From positions 1,531 to 65,530 of the forward strand of contig JBGPBW010000001.1 in NCBI GenBank assembly GCA_041481385.1: a stretch of 64,000 bases of DNA, written 5' to 3'. This document shows, piece by piece, positions 20,705 to 54,168 of the stretch (within the stretch, counting starts at the first letter, position 1; each line of letters opens with the position of its first letter). The notes beneath the pieces were generated by a model. It saw only the letters and a program-made list of their open reading frames with translations. It had not been told where the DNA came from and ran no database searches. Origin of the DNA: Puia sp. (lineage in GTDB: Bacteria > Bacteroidota > Bacteroidia > Chitinophagales > Chitinophagaceae). The translations under genes and the position numbers were made by a program.

Positions 20705-21688
20705 TTGAAAATCACTTTTAAATTCATGGCCCATTTCATTTTATACAGATGCAGAACCTGGCTGTTTTACCTGGTATTCATGGTTACCGGTTCCGCATCG
20801 TTTGCCCAAAGAATAATAGAAATAAAGTATGAAGCGGATGCTAATGGAGCAACTGTTTTTTCCTGTATTAATTATGCATATTGTAATTATATCCTCGATC
20901 TCGGATTTACTACCCTCAAAAATCTCCAATGTGATCGGACACTGCCTTTTCACGGAGAAGTGAAACCGGGATATACCAAACTTTTCGCGATTTCTGCTAT
21001 TGATCCGCAACTGCCCACCCAGTTTAACTACAGCGCCAAAAACCAGAAGGGCTGTATGCGTCCGGTAGTGAATGCAGATTTCACCTACCTGCTACCCATA
21101 TCGCCGGGAACGCAAGCACAGAGCTATGAAATGTCGCCTGACAAATTACCGGATACGACTAAAAGCAAAACCGTTAATAGTTCAACGGATAAAAGCAGGG
21201 ACTCGGTTTCCTGGTATGTGCTCCGGTTGAAAATGAAATCGGGCGATACCATATTTGCAGCAAGAAAAGGCGTTGTAACCGAAATCCATGATCAGAATGG
21301 CGCGAATGACGCAGGACAAATCAATGTGAGCACCGAGAATTATGTCGAGATCGTACAGGCAGATTGTTCATTTGCCCGTTATGGAATTCTGAAAAAAAAC
21401 AGTGCATTGGTCAAGCCGGGACAAGTCGTAAAGGCTGGACAGCCCATCGGACTTGTTGGCGGGGATTCATTCGGCCGCGGGTCAGATCTCCGGTTTAGTG
21501 TATATTATTATCAGGAAGAAATCAATGCCTCCCAAACGGGTGGCCGTCACTATATCATACCACAGATCTGGACAAAGAAAAATGGTAAAGGCCGTCTTAA
21601 ACACGGTGTCGTATATACCAGCGAGTTTCCGGCTTCCGTACTGAATCAGGAAAATACTGTACCAAAAAAAGTAAAACCTAAAAAATAA
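20705..21688 (+). CDS. M23/LytM-fold protein with degenerate active site
   Basis: GDTIFAARKGVV and VKPGQVVKAGQPIGLVG are M23-like, but the Zn-ligand histidines are absent. Start uncertain. Confidence 0.75.
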   Translation: MKITFKFMAHFILYRCRTWLFYLVFMVTGSASFAQRIIEIKYEADANGATVFSCINYAYCNYILDLGFTTLKNLQCDRTLPFHGEVKPGYTKLFAISAIDPQLPTQFNYSAKNQKGCMRPVVNADFTYLLPISPGTQAQSYEMSPDKLPDTTKSKTVNSSTDKSRDSVSWYVLRLKMKSGDTIFAARKGVVTEIHDQNGANDAGQINVSTENYVEIVQADCSFARYGILKKNSALVKPGQVVKAGQPIGLVGGDSFGRGSDLRFSVYYYQEEINASQTGGRHYIIPQIWTKKNGKGRLKHGVVYTSEFPASVLNQENTVPKKVKPKK

Positions 21689-21700
21689 AAAAGGCTTTAT

Positions 21701-21742
21701 CCGTCAACGGTCAACGGTCAACCGTCATCCGTCAACCATCAT
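21701..21742. repeat. Heptamer tandem repeat, CCGTCAA/CGGTCAA family (6 units)
   Basis: ccgtcaa cggtcaa cggtcaa ccgtcat ccgtcaa ccatcat, between convergent genes and overlapping a stop codon. Confidence 0.85.
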
Positions 21743-22569
21743 TTCACTTCACTCAACTGATAAGCCACGATCCGGCGGTCAAAAAAAGTGGGCACATACA
21801 CGATCTTTTTTGCAGGGTCGTACCCGATATCCGCGGTATTCTTTTTTTGTTCATGGGTATCCAGCAATAATTCAGTCTTTCCATCGGCATAGACATAAAA
21901 AATATAACCACTCCAGGAAGTGACGAGAAAATCTCCATTACCAATGGGTTCAATACCATCAATGGCCTGACCTACATCCGCCAGCCGGGTAATATTTTTT
22001 TTATCATCAGCCTTCATGAGCGCAGATCCTTTGGCAAAATAGAGTTCGTCTTTTACGCATTTCAGTCCGTTGGCCCCTGTAATATTTTCCAAATACAGGA
22101 CAGGTTTGTCATCATCGATTTTCCAAACCCTGCTGGTTTTTGAATCGGAAACATATACTGTTCCCCTGTCGGAAACGGTGATATCGTTGAGCCCGGTAGC
22201 CCCTTCCACAGGTATTTTCTTAAGAAGTTTACCATTAGGGATATTTACTACGATCACATCTGAAATGTCAGCGGCGTACATCCTGTCTTTGTACATACCC
22301 AGGCCCTTAGGAGCATTCAGTCCGGTTATCCAGTTTGAATCGTAATCAGTTCCCTTATTGCTCATATGGCCAATACCGCCCTTGCCATCTGCATCCCAGG
22401 GCCCGCCGTCGATCAGCGAAACATAAAGCAGATTGTTTTTAGGATCGGGTAAAACCGATTCCGGCGTTGCCACAACGGCATCGGTCGACCATATCTGGAC
22501 CAGTTTATGTTTTTGCGCATGAGTGATCAGGAAGGAGGAAAACAAAAAACAACCGATTATCTTTTTCAT
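21739..22569 (-). CDS. Exported SMP-30/gluconolactonase/LRE-like beta-propeller protein
   Basis: Signal peptide; PESV, LNAPKG, LNDI, ANGL, DGIE and ADIG blade motifs. Confidence 0.75.
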   Translation of the reverse strand: MKKIIGCFLFSSFLITHAQKHKLVQIWSTDAVVATPESVLPDPKNNLLYVSLIDGGPWDADGKGGIGHMSNKGTDYDSNWITGLNAPKGLGMYKDRMYAADISDVIVVNIPNGKLLKKIPVEGATGLNDITVSDRGTVYVSDSKTSRVWKIDDDKPVLYLENITGANGLKCVKDELYFAKGSALMKADDKKNITRLADVGQAIDGIEPIGNGDFLVTSWSGYIFYVYADGKTELLLDTHEQKKNTADIGYDPAKKIVYVPTFFDRRIVAYQLSEVK

Positions 22570-22673
22570 ATAGTTGGTTTTGAATGGATAATAAAATTAT
22601 TATTCTTTGGCTGTCCGGTGAATTTTTATTTGACAAAAATGGAAGTTTTCGTAAATTCAATAAATTGCCAGCC

Positions 22674-23555
22674 ATGTCAAATCAGAAAACGTTTACGAAG
22701 ACCGAGATAGCACCCCTGGCCAGCCTGGATGAATGGGAAGAAGACGTCTTGAAAAGATATCCTGAACAAGAACCCGTCTCCAAGGCAAAAGAAGCATACC
22801 GGAACTACGAAGAGCCTGCCCGCGACACCGTTCGTGAATTCTACAGGTTGAACCATACATACCAGACCAATGAATTCGTACAATCTAAAAGACATGAGTT
22901 TCTGCAATTCAGCAAAAAGGAAATGCCCGTTTGGGACGCATTCCAATTCCTGAATCAACTGGTAGACGATTCAGATCCGGATACTGACCTGGATCAGTTT
23001 CAACACCTGCTGCAGACGGCTGAAGCGATCCGGGCAGACGGCCATCCGGACTGGATGGTACTTGTCGGCCTGATGCATGATATGGGAAAAGTGCTCTGCC
23101 TGTTTGGAGAACCCCAGTGGGCCGTGGTCGGAGATACCTTCCCGGTTGGCTGCGCACATTCTGATAAGATTGTTTACCCGGAATTCTTTGCCTATAACCC
23201 GGATAGTACAAATCCTGCACTGAATTCAATACTTGGCGTGTACACACAAAATTGTGGATTGCGAAATGTAAACATGTCCTGGGGTCATGATGAATACGTG
23301 TACCAGATGATGAAGAACTCATTGCCTGAACCCGGCTTATATATGCTTCGTTATCATTCCTTTTATGCCTGGCACCGGGAAGGGGCTTATGAATACCTGC
23401 TCGACGATCATGACCGGGAAATGCTCAAATGGGTAAAATTGTTTAACCCCTATGATCTCTATTCAAAAAATCCGGTGGTGCCGGACTGGAACAAAATCAA
23501 GCCCTATTACGAAGCACTTGTGAATAAATACCTTCCTTCTACCCTTAAATTTTAA
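22674..23555 (+). CDS. miox: myo-Inositol oxygenase (MIOX family, diiron HD-like)
   Basis: DDSDPD, QHLLQTAE, HDMGK, VVGDTFPVGC, SWGHDEY, RYHSFY and DLYSK, which carry the MIOX diiron ligands. Likely start ATG 22674. Confidence 0.93.
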   Translation: MSNQKTFTKTEIAPLASLDEWEEDVLKRYPEQEPVSKAKEAYRNYEEPARDTVREFYRLNHTYQTNEFVQSKRHEFLQFSKKEMPVWDAFQFLNQLVDDSDPDTDLDQFQHLLQTAEAIRADGHPDWMVLVGLMHDMGKVLCLFGEPQWAVVGDTFPVGCAHSDKIVYPEFFAYNPDSTNPALNSILGVYTQNCGLRNVNMSWGHDEYVYQMMKNSLPEPGLYMLRYHSFYAWHREGAYEYLLDDHDREMLKWVKLFNPYDLYSKNPVVPDWNKIKPYYEALVNKYLPSTLKF

Positions 23556-23590
23556 TCTGCTCACCGAAAAGAAACCGGAGAACCATCCCC

Positions 23591-25219
23591 GTGCATACAT
23601 TACAGCGAGCGGACTACATTGTTTTTTTTGTCTATTTTATAGTTGTATCTGCATACGGTTACTATGTATATCATAAGAAAAAATCGACCGTTTCGGATTC
23701 AAAGGATTTTTTCCTCGCGGAAGGCTCACTAACCTGGTGGGCCATTGGCGCTTCACTGATCGCTTCCAATATTTCCGCAGAACATTTTATCGGTATGTCG
23801 GGTTCCGGTTATGCCCTGGGCCTCGCCATATCAACTTACGAATGGATGTCCGCAGCCACCCTGATAATTGTAGCAGTATTTATACTGCCTATCTATCTGC
23901 GGAATAAAATTGTTACCATGCCCCAGTTCCTGACACGGCGTTATAGTGAACTGGTTGGAACCGTGATGGCTGTTATTTGGCTGCTTGCCTATGTTTTTGT
24001 GAACCTTACATCAATCATTTACCTGGGTGCCCTCGCTATTACTTCCATCTCAGATATTTCTTTTGGTTGGAGTGTAGCCGGACTCGCCATATTCGCCGTT
24101 ATTGTAACCCTTGGCGGCATGAAAGTGATCGGGTATACAGATGTTATTCAGGTGCTGGTGCTGATCGTCGGTGGACTGGTTACGACTTATCTGGCACTCA
24201 CATTACTTTCTGAACATTTTGGATTCGGAACCAATTTGCTGAAGGGATTGTCCATCCTGCGAAAGGAAGCCCCGGAACATTTTCATATGATCTTCCACAA
24301 AGGCGATCCGTACTATAAGGATCTTCCGGGTACCTCTGTTATTGTCGGCGGCATGTTGATTAATAATCTGGCATACTGGGGATGCAATCAATATATTATT
24401 CAACGGGCGCTCGGTGCCAACCTGAAGACTGCTCGTAACGGGATTCTTTTCGCTGGATTTTTGAAGCTGATCGTACCGGTAATCGTTGTACTTCCCGGCA
24501 TAACCATGTTTGTTCTGCACAAAAACGGAATGTTTCAGCATGAAATGATGTCGGATGGGATTATAAAACCAGATCATGCTTATCCCACATTGATGAACCT
24601 GTTACCGCCCGGGCTCAAAGGTGTTGCTTTTGCTGCACTTACGGCGGCCGTTGTTGCCTCTCTTGCAGGAAAGGCAAATAGCATATCAACAATCTTTTCT
24701 CTTGACATATATAAAAAATTTTTCAATAAAAATGCAACGGAAAAACAGCTGGTCGGTATCGGGAAATGGGTGGTAATTCTGGCCATGGGCATTGCTGCCC
24801 TGATTGCGCCGTCATTAAAAACCCTGGATCAGGCGTATCAGTTTATCCAGGAATATGTAGGATTCATTCAGCCGGGTGTCTTGGCAATATTCCTGCTCGG
24901 ATTTTTCTGGAAGCGTACTACAGCAGCCGCAGCATTGACCGGAACGCTGCTGACGATCCCTGTTTCAGCAATCCTTAAATTTCTTCCAGTATGGACCAAC
25001 GGTGCTTTTCCGGATTTTCCGTTCCTCGACCGCATGTCCATCACTTTTCTTATCATAGTGGCCATGATGATCGGGGTGAGCTTATCCAAACCATCTGCCG
25101 ATCAGGCTTCACACACTATCGTTGTAAATAAAAAAGATTTTATCGTGTCACCTTCATTTATTCTGGGATCGGTGATAATTGTCGGCATCCTCGCCGGGTT
25201 GTACACGGTTTTCTGGTAA
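23591..25219 (+). CDS. Sodium:solute symporter (SSS/SGLT-like), probable myo-inositol transporter
   Basis: SLIASNISAEHFIGMSGSG and YWGCNQYIIQRALGA with many TM helices; 35 bp downstream of miox on the same strand. Confidence 0.9.
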   Translation: MHTLQRADYIVFFVYFIVVSAYGYYVYHKKKSTVSDSKDFFLAEGSLTWWAIGASLIASNISAEHFIGMSGSGYALGLAISTYEWMSAATLIIVAVFILPIYLRNKIVTMPQFLTRRYSELVGTVMAVIWLLAYVFVNLTSIIYLGALAITSISDISFGWSVAGLAIFAVIVTLGGMKVIGYTDVIQVLVLIVGGLVTTYLALTLLSEHFGFGTNLLKGLSILRKEAPEHFHMIFHKGDPYYKDLPGTSVIVGGMLINNLAYWGCNQYIIQRALGANLKTARNGILFAGFLKLIVPVIVVLPGITMFVLHKNGMFQHEMMSDGIIKPDHAYPTLMNLLPPGLKGVAFAALTAAVVASLAGKANSISTIFSLDIYKKFFNKNATEKQLVGIGKWVVILAMGIAALIAPSLKTLDQAYQFIQEYVGFIQPGVLAIFLLGFFWKRTTAAAALTGTLLTIPVSAILKFLPVWTNGAFPDFPFLDRMSITFLIIVAMMIGVSLSKPSADQASHTIVVNKKDFIVSPSFILGSVIIVGILAGLYTVFW

Positions 25220-25237
25220 CTGTTAATTGTCAGTTAG

Positions 25238-26383
25238 TTAATAGTATCGCCCTATGTACTGATCCTCTACAATGGCTTTTTTTAATTCTGCCGGATCTAT
25301 TGCGCCTTCCCTGGCAAATACAATTTTTCCACCCGGTTCCACCAGCAGGGTATAAGGCAGAGCACCAGGCCATTTCGGATCGATGGCTTCTATGAGTTTG
25401 TATTTATTGTCCCCACTGAAAATATAATTTTTAGACGAAGCCTCCTGTTTTTGCAGGAATTGCAGGGCTTTGTTTTGTTTAGCTGGCTCATCGGCACTGA
25501 TGCTGATGAATTCGAAATCCCGTTTGCGGTACATGCGGTTCATCGTAATGAATTCAGGGAACTCCACGACACACGGACCGCACCAGGTAGCCCAGACGTT
25601 GATCAGGCGTAGTTTATCTGAATGATTTTGCACGAGGTTTTGTATACCCGCTTCACCAATCGTATCCAAAGTTACCGGTTCATTGGCCCAGGTTATTTTT
25701 GCCTTATCGATCCATTGGCTCTTTTCGGCCCACTTGATGCTGCAACCGAACACTTTGGTTGTGGGTACTGAAACGGGTTGACCGGCCAACAATTCGTCGA
25801 TTGCTTTTCTTGCATTTTGTTCGGTGGGTGTTTTCGTTGGTTTTTCCATATCATCGATTCTGCCACTGTAACGTAGGATTCGGTTCTTATCAAAAATATA
25901 AACATGAGGCGTTGCTATGGGGCCGTAGGCCAGCGACACTTTTTCATTTTCCCCATCGTAGAGATATGGGAAATTGAATTTTTTTTCTTTGGCCCTGAGT
26001 TTCATTTCTTCAAAGGAATCACCCATGTCCGTATATCCCAGTTCGTCCAGGTTTATCGAAGCCGGGTCGTTGGGCATAATGGCTACTACTGCTACGTTTT
26101 TGGGACTGTAATCGCTGGTTAACCGGATAATCCGGTCTTCATAAGCCTGGGCTGTGGGGCAGTGGTTGCATGTAAATACAATGACCAAAACCTCGGCTTT
26201 GCTGAATGAGGCAAGTGAATAGGTTTTGCCATCAGTCGCGGGCAGGGAAAATGGCGGTGCAGGAGAACCAATGGGCAAGCTGGGGTGATCACCGGCGGAT
26301 CTCCTTGAGGCGTAATTCAATCGATCAGTTCCCATCGCAGAAAATAGTACCAGGTTCAAAACAAGAAACAGACAGGCTTTCAT
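25238..26383 (-). CDS. Exported tandem thioredoxin-fold (AhpC/TSA plus TlpA-like) protein
   Basis: Signal peptide, first domain FTCNHCP, second domain NVWATWCGPC. Confidence 0.88.
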   Translation of the reverse strand: MKACLFLVLNLVLFSAMGTDRLNYASRRSAGDHPSLPIGSPAPPFSLPATDGKTYSLASFSKAEVLVIVFTCNHCPTAQAYEDRIIRLTSDYSPKNVAVVAIMPNDPASINLDELGYTDMGDSFEEMKLRAKEKKFNFPYLYDGENEKVSLAYGPIATPHVYIFDKNRILRYSGRIDDMEKPTKTPTEQNARKAIDELLAGQPVSVPTTKVFGCSIKWAEKSQWIDKAKITWANEPVTLDTIGEAGIQNLVQNHSDKLRLINVWATWCGPCVVEFPEFITMNRMYRKRDFEFISISADEPAKQNKALQFLQKQEASSKNYIFSGDNKYKLIEAIDPKWPGALPYTLLVEPGGKIVFAREGAIDPAELKKAIVEDQYIGRYY

Positions 26384-26475
26384 TATTAAATAATTTGATT
26401 TTCAATATGACTTAGTGATCAAAAGGTAATATTTTTTGGAAAAACGGGATGCCTATACCGAAATTTTAGTCAGTT

Positions 26476-26546
26476 TGTAGTAGTGATGACGTAGCCGCGT
26501 CCCGAAAAGGAAATCTATTTGTTCTCCTGATGTAGTACAGAAGTAG
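26476..26546 (+). promoter_or_regulatory. Operator array 1: two TGATGTAG-N3-TGATGTAG-type pairs, 52 bp apart
   Basis: TGTAGTAG-tga-TGACGTAG at 26476 and TGATGTAG-tac-AGAAGTAG at 26528; -7-like TACATTTA at 26577. Confidence 0.75.
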
Positions 26547-26621
26547 TTTAAAAAATGAAAATTGTTTTAAAGATCCTACATTTATAAAGCAAAAAACGAT
26601 TGCTCAGTTTAAATTCATTTT

Positions 26622-27509
26622 ATGACTTCACGTAGAGTTTTTATACAGTCAGCCTCTGCTCTGACAGCCGCAGTTTTTGTAAAAGGTCCTCTGCAGGTTT
26701 TGAGTGCCTCCCCGGTTATCGGCCTTCAATTATACACCGTTCGGGATGCTATGTCCAAGGATCCGATGGGAACACTGGCTAAAGTGGCCCAGATCGGTTA
26801 TAATTCAATTGAAAATGCAACCTATACCGGATCGGAAAAATTTTATGGCATGGATGCGGCGACGTACAAAAAAGTGCTGGCTGAAAATGGTTTAGTTGCC
26901 AACAGTGGTCATTACAGGCTGGGAGAAGAAATGGAGAAGGGCGCTCCGGTGCAGGGAACCATTTTGCACGACTGGCAGAAAGCAGTTGACGACGCGTCAA
27001 CCGTTGGATTAAAATACATGGTATGTGCGTATTTGTCAGGCCAGGAACGTGGCGACCTGGATCACTATAAAAAGCTGGCTGAAATATTTAATAAAGCGGC
27101 AGAGACCTGCAAAAAATCGGGAATCCAGTTCTGTTATCATAACCACGACTTTGAATTTCAAAATCAGGATGGCGTATTCCCCTACGACATACTGCTGGAA
27201 AAAACAGACAAGGATCTGGTGAAAATGGAAGTTGACCTGTACTGGATCAAAAAAGCTGGTCAGGATCCGTTGGCCCTGTTTCAGAAACATCCCGGAAGAT
27301 TTCCACTCTGGCATGTAAAAGACATGTCCAAGGAAGCGGATCAGAGTTTTGCAGAAGTCGGTAGCGGTATCATCGATTTTAAAACCATCTTCCAGCATAA
27401 GGACCAGGCAGGCATGAAGTTCTTTTTCGTCGAACAGGATAAATGCCCGGGCTCACCATTCGACAGCATTACGCATAGTTACAATTTTATTAAGACCAAT
27501 TTGGTTTAA
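26622..27509 (+). CDS. Tat-exported sugar phosphate isomerase/epimerase (AP_endonuc_2, xylose-isomerase-like TIM barrel), paralog 1
   Basis: SRRVF Tat motif; YHNHDFEF, MEVDLYW, WHVKD and FVEQD metal-site motifs. Confidence 0.9.
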   Translation: MTSRRVFIQSASALTAAVFVKGPLQVLSASPVIGLQLYTVRDAMSKDPMGTLAKVAQIGYNSIENATYTGSEKFYGMDAATYKKVLAENGLVANSGHYRLGEEMEKGAPVQGTILHDWQKAVDDASTVGLKYMVCAYLSGQERGDLDHYKKLAEIFNKAAETCKKSGIQFCYHNHDFEFQNQDGVFPYDILLEKTDKDLVKMEVDLYWIKKAGQDPLALFQKHPGRFPLWHVKDMSKEADQSFAEVGSGIIDFKTIFQHKDQAGMKFFFVEQDKCPGSPFDSITHSYNFIKTNLV

Positions 27510-27634
27510 TTGTTAATTGTCAATTGTTAATTGTTAACGCAGATATACAGCTTGCTGATTAATAGTTGAGCTTAAATATTCAGCTGACAAATAATATAGC
27601 TGATAGAACTAAAGGCGTTAACAATTGTCAATTA
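27508..27634. repeat. AATTGTY heptamer array plus its inverted copy, bracketing a convergent intergenic region
   Basis: aattgtt aattgtc aattgtt aattgtt aacgc (27508-27540) and gcgttaacaattgtcaatt (27615-27633); each begins in a stop codon. Confidence 0.75.
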
Positions 27635-30556
27635 GTTCTTCTGTTTTTGTTCATGAGAGGAAAAATTCAGCAGGAAATCAAAAAGGTTGGTTTCTGTGTT
27701 TATTTTTAATTTTTTCCTCAGTCTGTACCTGCCGATTTCCACACCCCGTACTGAAATACTTTCAAGCTGTGCGATTTCCTTGCTGGACAAATTCATCCGC
27801 AGATAAGCACAAAGTTTCAGTTCGTGCGGACTCAGTGCCGGGTAGACGTTCTTGATGTTGCTGAGAAAATCGCTATGTACGTGGTCGAAATGCTGGGCAA
27901 ATTGTTCCCAGTCCTTGTCCATTTTATTTTCCTCGCTGAGAATACGCATAATCTTTTTGAATTCGTCAGGCGCTGCATGACCATTTGCATTTTTCTTTAT
28001 GCGACTCATTTCTTCCTTTATGTTACCAAGTAATTCGCCTTTTTGAACAAGATGCATGGCGGTGGATGCCAGCTCGGTGTTTTTAAAGGCGATATCCGCC
28101 TCCAGTTTTTCGTTTCTGAGTTTTACAATTTCTTTTTCCGATTTATCCAACTCCAGTTCATGCAAGTAAGTGAGGCGCTTTTGCTCCTCCTCATATTTCT
28201 GCTGCTGTTCCAGAAATATTTGTTTCTGCCAGCGGAATATCAGATAAATCATGCAACCGATGATCAGGGCATAGGTCAGGTATGCCCAGTTGGTCTGATA
28301 CCAGGGTGGCATAACGACAAACCGGTAAATTTTAATGGAGGATTCATTACCCAGATTGTTTTTCGCCTTTACCTGAAATTCATAACTACCTGGTGGAAGG
28401 TTTGTATATTCCTTCTCGGATTTTTTCGACCATGCTGACCAGGATGGATCAAATCCACTTAGTAAATAACTGTACTGGACATTAGATTGCTGGGCATATA
28501 CCGGAGCAGAATATTCAAAGTGCAGGGAGTTCATATTGCTACCTACACTGGGAACAGCCGACGCCGGCTGGATCAGGGGCTGGTTGATCTGATCAAAATA
28601 TCCGCCGAACAGGAGACTGTCGCCATGCCCAAATGCTTTTACGGATCGGATCATCACATCGAGCCCATACCGGTTCTTTTTGTACAACTCGTAGTTAATA
28701 TGATAGAATCCTTTTTCGCAGCCTACCAGGATATTGGCGTTATTATACGGATCCACATTTTCCCAACCACTCACCATTTTTCCGTTCAATTCAGGGAAAT
28801 AAATGATTTTGGGTGTTTTCCAGGAAAAATCAATCACGCCCAGATTTTTGTCTTCTACAAACCATATATTGCCAGACGCATCTTCTTTCAGGTAGCGGAT
28901 ATTACGGATTCCAAAAAACTCTTTGAAATAATCCGATAACTCAAAGCGGTCTGTTTTCGAATCATACTCGTAAATACCTTTTTCAGTAGCCACAACAATC
29001 CGGTTCAATACTTTAAATAACTGATTCTTTACGGAAGAGGGCAGGCCCTGTTCTTCCTTATATAAACGGGCGGATGCAGCTTTGCCGGGATGCAGGTCTA
29101 TTTTATAGACGCCCCTGTACGGATGTCCAACCCAGATGGTATTATTATTATCAATTGCCACAAACTGGGAGTACTCGCTGAATCCCGGAATATTTCCTTT
29201 GGAAACGAACCGGTTATTTTCCCATTCCAATAAATCCAGGCCCGATTCATTTCCAGCGAGAACAAGCTTGGAAGGAAGCACATTGTAAAAAGGAATAAAA
29301 CAGTGATACTCCACCCCTGAATTCAAAGGCAGGGGTTGACCTGCATGTAATGCATATACCCCATCATGATGGCCCAGCAACAACTCCCCATTCATTTTGG
29401 CCAGGCACCAGGAAGACCCCTTAGTATAAGGAAGGGGTGTAAAGTCGCCGTCCACGAAACTGAGATCTGTCTTTCCTTTTAGGGGTACGGTATAGAATCC
29501 ATTTGAAGTACCCACATAAAGCGCATCCTGGTAAATCAGGGAGGTATATCCTTTGCCTTCATTTAGCTTTTCCGGATAAATATGTTTGATCGCGTTATTA
29601 TATGCGATGAAATCAATGCCATCGTCAAGCCCAAGCCACAAATTGTTGTCCTTATCCAGAAAAAGGGTCAGTATATTATTAAGTTGTAATCCTTCCTTTC
29701 GGGATAGATTCTGGATCACTTCACCTTTTTTATTGATCACATAACAACCATTCAGGTTGGTGCCTACCGCAATCCAGTCATGTGTTATGGGGATCGCTGT
29801 CAGAATGCGCTGGTTTTTTAAAGGATTCATTCCGGCAAAACGGAAAGGGGTCAGTTTGTCCCTATTCAATATGTAAAAACCAGATGTGATTGTGGTCAGA
29901 AAACAACTGTCGGTGCCGATTGAAAACAGCGAGGATACAATATAACCGCGGGGAAGCGGACTCTGATCCAGATAACTGGTCCACAATCCGTTATTGAACT
30001 TCATCAGGCCGGTTTTCACATCCTGGGCAATCAGGAAGTTGTTCCCTGTACCCAAAAATGTCCACTCACTGGGTGCTGGATAAACTGTTATGGAATAGCC
30101 ATTGTACTGAAATATTTTCTCTTTGGATCGGAAAAAAACGTCATTGCCCAGACAGACGATATTCCAGATTTCCTTAAACGAATAATCTTTTTTGGGCAAC
30201 AGAAATTTGAGGGACGTGAAACTCAGTTTACCATTGTGGTCAGGAGAAAAATAGCCGAAATCATCCTGTCCGCCTGCATAAATCCGGTTGTCCTTGCCCA
30301 TAAGGATGGAACGGACGATGGATTTATTAGGAAGGGAATACAGTTTCCATGAGGAACCATCAAAACTCAGCAATCCTTCCAGGTTGGCAAAATATATAAC
30401 ACCGTTCTGGTCTTCAACAATGCCCCTGTTTTCCGTCCCCGCCCCGTAATTGTTATTAGAGTAATTGATGATATCGGGTATGCCAATGGGATTTTGCGCT
30501 TTTACCAAAACTGCGCAGCAGACCAGGAAGATAATGGGCATCCGCTTCATGTGCAA
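27632..30556 (-). CDS. Membrane-anchored one-component regulator: periplasmic Reg_prop propeller, Y_Y_Y, TM, coiled coil and LuxR-type HTH
   Basis: Signal peptide; propeller repeats; KEYTNLPPGSYEFQVKA (Y_Y_Y); PPWYQTNWAY plus TM; C-terminal LSPHELKLCAYLRMNLSSKEIA...RYRLRKKL. No kinase or receiver domain. Confidence 0.88.
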   Translation of the reverse strand: MHMKRMPIIFLVCCAVLVKAQNPIGIPDIINYSNNNYGAGTENRGIVEDQNGVIYFANLEGLLSFDGSSWKLYSLPNKSIVRSILMGKDNRIYAGGQDDFGYFSPDHNGKLSFTSLKFLLPKKDYSFKEIWNIVCLGNDVFFRSKEKIFQYNGYSITVYPAPSEWTFLGTGNNFLIAQDVKTGLMKFNNGLWTSYLDQSPLPRGYIVSSLFSIGTDSCFLTTITSGFYILNRDKLTPFRFAGMNPLKNQRILTAIPITHDWIAVGTNLNGCYVINKKGEVIQNLSRKEGLQLNNILTLFLDKDNNLWLGLDDGIDFIAYNNAIKHIYPEKLNEGKGYTSLIYQDALYVGTSNGFYTVPLKGKTDLSFVDGDFTPLPYTKGSSWCLAKMNGELLLGHHDGVYALHAGQPLPLNSGVEYHCFIPFYNVLPSKLVLAGNESGLDLLEWENNRFVSKGNIPGFSEYSQFVAIDNNNTIWVGHPYRGVYKIDLHPGKAASARLYKEEQGLPSSVKNQLFKVLNRIVVATEKGIYEYDSKTDRFELSDYFKEFFGIRNIRYLKEDASGNIWFVEDKNLGVIDFSWKTPKIIYFPELNGKMVSGWENVDPYNNANILVGCEKGFYHINYELYKKNRYGLDVMIRSVKAFGHGDSLLFGGYFDQINQPLIQPASAVPSVGSNMNSLHFEYSAPVYAQQSNVQYSYLLSGFDPSWSAWSKKSEKEYTNLPPGSYEFQVKAKNNLGNESSIKIYRFVVMPPWYQTNWAYLTYALIIGCMIYLIFRWQKQIFLEQQQKYEEEQKRLTYLHELELDKSEKEIVKLRNEKLEADIAFKNTELASTAMHLVQKGELLGNIKEEMSRIKKNANGHAAPDEFKKIMRILSEENKMDKDWEQFAQHFDHVHSDFLSNIKNVYPALSPHELKLCAYLRMNLSSKEIAQLESISVRGVEIGRYRLRKKLKINTETNLFDFLLNFSSHEQKQKN

Positions 30557-30653
30557 TCAATCTAAACCAAAAATAAGGGTAATACCCGTCAAAAATGCCA
30601 GTACGGACCATGGGGATGCTGAGCAGTCATTTTCCCCGTTTAGAAATTTTTCG

Positions 30654-30724
30654 TGATGTAGTGATGATGTAGCCTCTTTTGGCAGTTATCGTTTATTTTT
30701 TATGCTGATGTAGTATTGAAGTGG
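30654..30724 (+). promoter_or_regulatory. Operator array 2 in the regulator/PD40-protein divergent promoter
   Basis: TGATGTAG-tga-TGATGTAG at 30654 and TGATGTAG-tat-TGAAGTGG at 30706 (52 bp offset); -7-like TAATTTCA at 30756. Confidence 0.8.
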
Positions 30725-53208: not shown

Positions 53209-54168
53209 ATGCGTATACTTGCTTTAATACTATTGTCGCTAATCCCCTTAGTTCCTCTCTTTTCTCAGGTTGCTCAAAATTCTGATTCGGTTTTCCAAAA
53301 AACCCAAAAGCCACTTCGCTTCATCGTATTCGGGGACTGGGGCCGCAACGGTGAAGATAATCAGCGGGAAGTCGCGAGGGAAATGGGCATCGTTGCAAAA
53401 AAATTCAAGCCTGAATTTATTGTTTCCACCGGCGATAATATATATCCCAATGGCGTTCGCAGCACGCGCGACCACAACTGGATTGCTTCATTTGAAGATA
53501 TATACACGGCCCAATCTCTGCAAACCGACTGGTGGGTCGTGCTCGGCAACCACGATTACCGCGGTGATCCGCAGGCAGAAATTGATTATTCTGCAGTAGA
53601 CCGTCGTTGGAATCTGCCGGCAAGATATTATTCAAAAACATTTTTCATTGGCGAAGACAGTACAAACGGCGTACTGCTCATATTTCTGGATACCACTCCT
53701 TTTTTATCTGAATCTTATATCGGTGATAAAATCCATGTACAGGGTCAGGATACAGCTATGCAGCGAGTCTGGCTTGAAAAAACACTTGCGGAAGCACCAG
53801 CGAATGTCAAATGGAAAATAGTATTCGGGCATCATCCGGTGTATACGGGCGGGGGCAGGATGAAAGCGAAAGAGACGGTGGAAATGAAAAATTTATTTAA
53901 ACCGATATTTGAAAAATATCATGTCAATGCTTACATCTGCGGACACGATCACAATCTTCAATACATCAAACCACCCGGATTTACGCACTATTTTGTTTCG
54001 GGTGCTGGTGCAGAATTATCAAATACCGTCGTACATCCCGAAGGGGGCGTTTATGCCCGGGCGATTAATGGCTTCATGAATTTCAGTGTATACGGTGAAG
54101 AAATGCAGGTTCACCTGGTCAGCCTGACCGGGGAGAAACTTTTTTCTGTGAAAATCCCGAGGAACTAG
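53209..54168 (+). CDS. Exported metallophosphoesterase, purple/tartrate-resistant acid phosphatase-like
   Basis: Signal peptide; GDWG, GDNIY, GNHD, GHHP and GHDH motifs. Confidence 0.9.
   Translation: MRILALILLSLIPLVPLFSQVAQNSDSVFQKTQKPLRFIVFGDWGRNGEDNQREVAREMGIVAKKFKPEFIVSTGDNIYPNGVRSTRDHNWIASFEDIYTAQSLQTDWWVVLGNHDYRGDPQAEIDYSAVDRRWNLPARYYSKTFFIGEDSTNGVLLIFLDTTPFLSESYIGDKIHVQGQDTAMQRVWLEKTLAEAPANVKWKIVFGHHPVYTGGGRMKAKETVEMKNLFKPIFEKYHVNAYICGHDHNLQYIKPPGFTHYFVSGAGAELSNTVVHPEGGVYARAINGFMNFSVYGEEMQVHLVSLTGEKLFSVKIPRN

Follow-up and report, generated by a model that had tools for sequence, protein, structure and literature searches.

A myo-inositol oxygenase and a putative sodium/myo-inositol symporter form a predicted operon in a Puia genome

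Soil and the root zone hold large stocks of carbon and phosphorus in the form of inositol and inositol phosphates, and according to the textbooks bacteria catabolise inositol by the Iol pathway. A second entry into inositol consumption is provided by myo-inositol oxygenase (MIOX), and the MIOX of Flavobacterium johnsoniae is used in glucaric-acid engineering. As for uptake, the eukaryotic SLC5 carriers SMIT1/2 show that the SSF/SGLT family of sodium/solute symporters, to which the transporter considered here belongs, can carry inositol. In this study we have analysed two adjacent genes, encoding a MIOX and an SGLT-like sodium/solute symporter (SSF), in a 64-kb stretch of Puia sp. DNA (64,000 nt, hereafter the window). 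The window corresponds to contig C1:1531-65530 of a 4.98-Mb metagenome-assembled genome (MAG) that comprises 424 contigs, is 92.8% complete and has Puia and other Chitinophagaceae MAGs as its closest relatives. A preliminary description of this DNA, made from its letters, had read the pair as an inositol utilization module. We compared the pair with the rest of the genome, with 80 related MIOX loci, whose open reading frames (ORFs) were clustered and the recurrent clusters annotated by Pfam, with 151 Chitinophagaceae genomes (approximately one per genus, 150 genera) and with 401 Bacteroidota genomes from 179 genera.

Bacterial MIOX genes accompanied by a transporter have been described before. 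In Mucilaginibacter yixingensis YX-36, the polysaccharide utilization locus (PUL) PUL39 contains a sodium/sugar symporter, SusD, SusC, an inositol oxygenase and LacI; its genes mildly affect plant colonisation and its substrate was left open by the authors (PMC13440311). In Francisella sp. TX07-7308 and Francisella philomiragia, a MIOX and a transporter of the major facilitator superfamily (MFS) were reported in 2012 inside a glucuronate operon (PMC3479022). With respect to activity, the F. johnsoniae MIOX converts myo-inositol into glucuronate when placed in E. coli; its product yield in yeast was given by Marques et al. 2020, as cited in the same paper (PMC10294642). A transfer of MIOX from Amorphea to bacteria has been inferred (PMC11131428). 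Finally, Flavobacterium phosphate utilization systems combine PusC/D with periplasmic phosphodiesterases (PMC8115612), an arrangement resembled by some of the loci described below. Literature searches yielded no characterised bacterial SSF inositol carrier and no characterised MIOX PUL. The pairing of MIOX with a transporter and an active Bacteroidota MIOX are therefore already known, and the locus in the window is not exotic.

Our analysis favours the reading, to which we assign a probability of about 0.78, that MIOX and the symporter make up one operon for the O2-dependent use of free myo-inositol. In the proposed mechanism, the symporter (23591-25219, + strand) would use sodium to drive the import of myo-inositol through the inner membrane, and MIOX (22674-23555, + strand) would open the ring at the C1-C6 bond with O2, producing D-glucuronate. 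Glucuronate would then pass through UxaC, a fructuronate reductase, the mannonate dehydratase UxuA, KdgK and Eda, predicted to be encoded elsewhere in the genome, and would end as pyruvate and glyceraldehyde-3-phosphate.

The assignment of the 293-aa enzyme as MIOX, an HD-domain di-iron oxygenase, can be considered secure short of an assay. The ORF that contains the gene (22584-23555) scored 358.6 bits with the Pfam family MIOX (PF05153; cut-off 25), the match spanning positions 2-249 of the 249-position profile. When the whole genome was searched, the score was 359.4 bits, and the gene is present in a single copy. Among solved structures, only mouse and human MIOX were matched (286.8 and 269 bits, respectively), and the identity to the mouse enzyme was 50% over 271 aa. 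Alignment with chain A of the mouse structure 2HUO, whose numbering equals the native one plus 4, revealed that the six di-iron ligands are identical to mouse H98, H123, D124, H194, H220 and D253. Also kept are K127, the catalytic lysine, and R29, Y44, D85, S87, D88, D142, S221 and K257, the inositol contacts of the mouse structure. Both genes of the pair are under strong purifying selection, with dN/dS ratios (nonsynonymous to synonymous substitution rates) of ∼0.035: 0.034 for MIOX when compared to its nearest relative, at an unsaturated dS of 0.8, and 0.036 for the symporter.

The second gene, with a GTG start, encodes a 542-aa protein that matched PF00474 (205 bits, cut-off 22.8) and TIGR00813 (317 bits, cut-off 184). 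It aligned with the Vibrio parahaemolyticus galactose carrier vSGLT (2XQ2) over residues 2-542, with 468 bits and 46% identity. In vSGLT numbering, the residues kept are A62, I65, A361 and S365 of the Na2-site region, M73 and nine positions of the pocket (N64, Y87, E88, S91, N260, Y263, W264, K294 and Q428), and the changes are Q69H, Y262A, S364A, F424Y and Y426F. Sodium coupling of the symporter is likely on this alignment. The complete Na+/galactose-glucose pocket of vSGLT is not found in the window symporter, in which Q69 is replaced by His and F424 by Tyr. H69 and Y424 were present in 33 out of 33 inositol-linked symporter sequences. Q69 and F424 were the residues found in vSGLT, in the genome's own 53% paralogue on contig C127 and in six 60-63% paralogues, which come from genomes without inositol genes or are second copies. 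The five annotated paralogue neighbourhoods contained an FGGY kinase, a TIM-barrel protein, UxuA, a phospholipase D and a GMC oxidoreductase, and no inositol enzyme. In a maximum-likelihood tree, all 33 inositol-linked symporters formed one clade (support 98/88), inside which the iol-linked sequences were nested among the MIOX-linked ones.

The distribution of this clade follows that of inositol enzymes. A symporter orthologue with at least 67% identity lay inside the examined flanks of MIOX in 36 of the 80 loci, spanning Chitinophagaceae, Sphingobacteriaceae, Cyclobacteriaceae and Chryseolinea. Among the 151 family genomes, orthologues with at least 69% identity occurred in 26, of which 24 carry MIOX and 2 carry IolD, and in none of the 102 that have neither gene. 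Moreover, in three genomes devoid of MIOX the symporter was embedded in an iol cluster. Genome G127 presents the order SSF-LacI-iolG-E-A-D-C-B plus an aldolase (L100, G127:C18); G117 presents iolB-C-D-A-E-G, a divergent LacI and SusC-SusD-metallophosphoesterase-SSF (L099, G117:C1:2818500-2838000); and G048 carries a copy, 62% identical, within its iol cluster (L101, G048:C11). The assignments in these clusters were all over cut-off: IolG 420 bits (cut-off 355), IolD 903 (715), IolC 377 (300) and IolB 323 (205). All three iol-linked copies carry H69, Y424 and F426. Since the MIOX and Iol routes have no common intermediate after inositol itself, the carrier that they share would be an inositol carrier, and the window symporter is most likely a Na+/myo-inositol carrier.

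Two other observations concern symporters at MIOX loci. A second SSF subfamily, with ∼27% identity to the window carrier, accompanies MIOX in 16 loci, upstream of LacI (L039, L042-L046, L054, L055 and L061 from Niastella and Longitalea, and others), and its pocket differs strongly (E69, F87, Y88, G91, S260). In addition, L013 and L019 each show the symporter as two separate ORFs, owing to either a frameshift or faulty assembly, and in L015 the gene is truncated by the contig end.

We then consider the fate of the predicted product. No iol and no uxa/uxu genes lie within the 64-kb window. Across the genome, the highest IolD score was 241.7 bits (cut-off 715) and the highest IolG score 119.6 bits (cut-off 355), so that neither is present above threshold. 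The sole UxaC (618.6 bits, cut-off 387) is located on contig C91, in a + strand cluster (C91:7068-11873, L084) together with an altronate-dehydratase-like (uxaA-like) gene, a KdgK-like kinase and an Eda-like aldolase. The KdgK-like and Eda-like genes are clear best matches but score below the equivalog cut-offs. Two UxuA equivalogs exceed their cut-off, one on contig C122 and one on C2. The C91 cluster is likely to be the sink for the glucuronate that MIOX would make.

The same association holds at the level of the family. MIOX was present in 42 of the 151 Chitinophagaceae genomes (28% of the sampled genera) and IolD in 7, and the two never overlapped. UxaC accompanied MIOX in 42 of 42 genomes and occurred in 59 of the 109 genomes without MIOX (Fisher p = 1.3e-9, a co-occurrence statistic that ignores phylogeny and genome size). 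In the phylum sample, MIOX appeared in 31 of the 401 genomes and in 20 of the 179 genera (11%), which makes it a common gene among soil Bacteroidota. The oxygenase route is predicted to be the main entry of inositol catabolism in Chitinophagaceae. The preliminary description had reported no iol, uxaC or uxuAB gene in the window, which our search corroborates, and had proposed looking for iol and uxu/uxa genes in the genome, where IolD and IolG turned out to be absent and UxaC and two UxuA present. Its central proposal, a two-gene oxygenolytic inositol module feeding uronate catabolism, finds support in silico in the intact active site, in the genome's lack of the Iol route and possession of the UxaC route, and, family-wide, in the MIOX-UxaC co-occurrence and in the confinement of the symporter orthologues to MIOX or iol genomes.

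The two genes are separated by an intergenic spacer of 35 bases (23556-23590, + strand), in which no + strand terminator-like site was found, and the corresponding spacing is ∼38-60 bases in 22 close relatives. The predicted promoter of the MIOX-SSF operon (22629-22659, + strand) is composed of TTTG (22629-22632), 19 bases and TAAATTCA (22652-22659). A sigma-70 scan scored the same site (TTGACA-16-TAAATT, 22630-22657) as the top promoter-like match, with 10/12, and the promoter block TTTTATTTG...TTTCGTAAATTCA, together with a short leader, is kept in ∼20 Puia-clade loci. On this layout, MIOX and the symporter are probably co-transcribed. A longer MIOX ORF starting at ATG 22584 was rejected, given that the promoter, conserved in relatives, falls inside it; because this conserved promoter is downstream of the earlier ATG, we place the MIOX start at ATG 22674. 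That start, between which and ATG 22584 the promoter sits, had been proposed in the preliminary description. The other structural claims made there also hold: the 35-bp gap between the genes, the intact MIOX di-iron motif set (six out of six ligands as in mouse) and the SGLT-like nature of the symporter (full-length vSGLT alignment, SSF and TIGR00813 matches). In one relative (L005), a tandem 9-base unit, CATACTCCC, in ∼9 copies takes the place of the usual sequence ∼60-160 bases upstream of MIOX.

Several observations weigh against an operon for myo-inositol use. Because the MAG is split into 424 contigs and reaches 92.8% completeness, its lack of iol genes is not absolute. A dedicated UxuB (fructuronate reductase) was not identified in the genome, where only a generic short-chain dehydrogenase/reductase lies beside uxuA (C2:30397-31149). 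At the homologous Mucilaginibacter locus, random barcode transposon sequencing (RB-TnSeq) brought out no phenotype in vitro (PMC13440311). In the symporter, S364 of the Na2-site region has become Ala and, with its nine kept positions, the pocket is otherwise close to that of the galactose carrier vSGLT. These kept sugar contacts, the 468-bit match to vSGLT and the generic name "solute:sodium symporter", the only one that NCBIfam offers, would suit an ordinary Na+ carrier for hexoses (glucose/galactose/xylose-type) that merely adjoins MIOX while inositol enters otherwise. We regard this as decidedly unlikely. All 26 family genomes with an orthologue carry MIOX or IolD, and the 102 genomes without either have none; the orthologues are embedded in iol clusters in the three genomes that lack MIOX; and the clade is monophyletic, with two pocket positions unlike those of the sugar-linked paralogues.

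The substrate might instead be another cyclitol or inositol derivative (D-chiro-inositol, scyllo-inositol or demethylated pinitol), with myo-inositol as a side substrate. According to the title of Arner et al. 2001, among the references of PMC9788770, animal MIOX reportedly oxidises D-chiro-inositol too; SusC/D and phosphoesterases in sister loci point to more complex inositol-containing sources, and the silence of the Mucilaginibacter locus in vitro goes in the same direction. Such a preference nevertheless appears rather unlikely when all the myo-inositol contacts of mouse MIOX are kept and the same transporter clade serves the route of IolG, a myo-inositol 2-dehydrogenase. It has also to be considered whether MIOX is anabolic, as in plants, where it is said to be an entry into ascorbate biosynthesis (title of Lorence et al. 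2004, among the references of PMC9602106). Glucuronate would then serve uridine diphosphate (UDP)-glucuronate and envelope polysaccharides instead of carbon and energy supply, and genes related to the envelope do occur in the window (for a glycosyltransferase, for a lipid A acyltransferase and for a substrate of the type IX secretion system). We find this highly improbable: the co-occurrence with the catabolic isomerase UxaC is perfect, sister loci stand under a LacI-type catabolic repressor with SusC/D, and no glucuronokinase or UDP-sugar pyrophosphorylase adjoins MIOX, although no search was aimed at either. In other bacteria, moreover, MIOX sits within uxa/uxu operons (PMC3479022). An operon for the oxygenolytic use of free myo-inositol thus remains our preferred reading of the pair.

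The comparison of the 80 loci placed the window in a wider context. A recurrent architecture, found in 27 of them, consists of a LacI gene divergent from MIOX-SusC-SusD, with the symporter often further downstream, and occurs in Niastella, Flavisolibacter, Chitinophaga, Daejeonella and other genera. Frequent extras in these loci are a GDPD/PI-PLC-like phosphodiesterase, an endonuclease/exonuclease/phosphatase (EEP)-family protein and a propeller-fused PLC-type phosphoesterase, besides calcineurin-like phosphoesterase, PAP2 or GH92 genes; the phosphoesterase-bearing sister loci include L029, L037, L051, L057, L072, L074 and L078. This gene content suggests that secreted phosphoesterases of the sister loci may harvest inositol from phosphorylated or lipid-bound forms. 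The iol locus of G117 encodes homologues of MIOX-locus proteins (SusC 51%, SusD 56%, LacI 48% and metallophosphoesterase 46-60% identity), and therefore the uptake module appears to be shared and the catabolic core, MIOX or Iol, to be exchanged.

In the Puia clade, including the window, MIOX and the symporter stand alone, with no LacI, operator, SusC/SusD or phosphoesterases at the locus. There being no SusC/SusD beside MIOX, the window locus is not a SusC/SusD-centred PUL or phosphate utilization system, and we interpret it as a reduced form of the wider Bacteroidota inositol locus. The preliminary description had also connected the operon to soil phytate turnover; the window gives no support for that connection, as phosphoesterases and SusC/D flank MIOX in sister loci only. 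A calcineurin-like metallophosphoesterase, 48% identical to the MIOX/iol-associated one, is encoded in the window at 53209-54168 (+ strand), 30 kb from MIOX.

Extending these comparisons, the H69/Y424 clade may represent a bacterial SSF Na+/myo-inositol symporter that acts as the inner-membrane end of a modular Bacteroidota system. The components of this system would be LacI, SusC/SusD, secreted phosphoesterases and the symporter; its core would be swapped between MIOX and Iol, with the oxygenase route dominant in Chitinophagaceae, and the sister loci would use phosphorylated or lipid-bound inositol. We hold this broader proposal at slightly better than even odds.

The sister loci carry a putative regulatory element upstream of MIOX. 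A 14-base near-palindrome, CGAAAACGGTTTCG, followed by TAAATAAA, is found ∼90-110 bases upstream of MIOX and is exact in 19 loci. It is placed between the divergent LacI gene and MIOX (L028-L080, for instance L073:5899-5912) and is likely the LacI operator. Given that loci of the MIOX and iol types have related LacI proteins and an uptake module in common, and that inositol is the sole compound on both routes, inositol would be the expected inducer. No copy of CGAAAACGGTTTCG exists at the MIOX promoter of the window. The only match nearby (22684-22697, 3 mismatches) was rejected, since it lies within MIOX codons 4-8 and the match count is at chance level; the one similar site found genome-wide, which precedes the gene of a small protein whose CxxC motif resembles a metal-binding one at the end of contig C69, was also judged to be due to chance. 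A LacI homologue ∼50% identical to the MIOX-locus LacI is encoded at a contig end (C38:24473-25402), where it adjoins a further SusC/D locus. This gene may be a regulator that has been displaced, its partner genes being lost where the contig stops.

With regard to the surroundings, the operon is flanked in the window by genes for an NHL-repeat protein and a TlpA-like thiol-disulfide oxidoreductase, and an Rfam search of 21500-26700 retrieved no RNA element. A TIM-barrel gene at 26622 was evaluated as IolE and rejected (49.7 bits, cut-off 290; eight paralogues in the genome). Boxes of the GATGTAGT type are repeated at 26384-26621 and 30557-30720, in the promoters around a propeller-LuxR regulator (27632-30556). 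Inclusion of MIOX in the regulon of this protein was rejected, and we treat the operon and the regulon as separate because the MIOX promoter has no GATGTAGT-type box.

What is new here is the comparative evidence that would tie a symporter clade to inositol and to both catabolic routes, and the predicted dominance of the oxygenase route in Chitinophagaceae. In this family, the oxygenase route is ∼six times more frequent than Iol and is always accompanied by the glucuronate isomerase; therefore, pathway predictors based on iol genes alone would miss these organisms. The results also point to a substrate that can be tested, both across an entire clade of unnamed "sodium/sugar symporters" and in PUL39-type loci; for engineering, they offer a bacterial MIOX with a putatively matched importer for glucuronate or glucarate production. 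They do not overturn current understanding; they fill an annotation gap.

When the window pair is set against the known systems, the enzyme is closest to animal MIOX (mouse 2HUO/3BXD, human 2IBN; EC 1.13.99.1), with which it shares the PF05153 fold family, a similar length, the iron ligands, the lysine and the contacts. It differs in being bacterial, in lying in a predicted operon with a transporter and in having a product predicted to enter the UxaC isomerase route, not the glucuronate-xylulose route of animals. The preliminary description had presented MIOX as the eukaryotic route with few bacterial examples studied. The protein is animal-like, with 50% identity to mouse MIOX; the arrangement, however, is not unusual in Bacteroidota. 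The symporter belongs to the same SSF/SGLT family as vSGLT (3DH4/2XQ2), from which it keeps four of the five Na2-site residues and most sugar contacts, and differs from it by Q69H, Y262A, F424Y and Y426F, which mark the inositol-linked clade.

In Francisella, likewise, a bacterial MIOX stands beside its own transporter and is predicted to feed UxaC-UxuB-UxuA-KdgK-KdgA. There, however, the carrier is an MFS protein (XylT-like) and the operon also includes the uronate genes, whereas the carrier in the window is of the SSF type and other contigs of the genome encode the uronate enzymes. PUL39 shows the same association of MIOX with a Na+ symporter in soil Bacteroidota as the window, and its architecture matches that of the 27 sister loci; in contrast, the window is devoid of LacI, the CGAAAACGGTTTCG operator, SusC/SusD and phosphoesterases. 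Finally, the Iol pathway of the Bacillus subtilis type (IolG-E-D-B-C-J-A, with IolT or ABC uptake) would consume the same nutrient as the window pair, and three Chitinophagaceae genomes have an iol cluster served by a symporter from the clade of the window carrier. The difference lies in the chemistry: a single oxygenase would replace six or seven enzymes, and the product would be glucuronate instead of dihydroxyacetone phosphate, acetyl-CoA and CO2.

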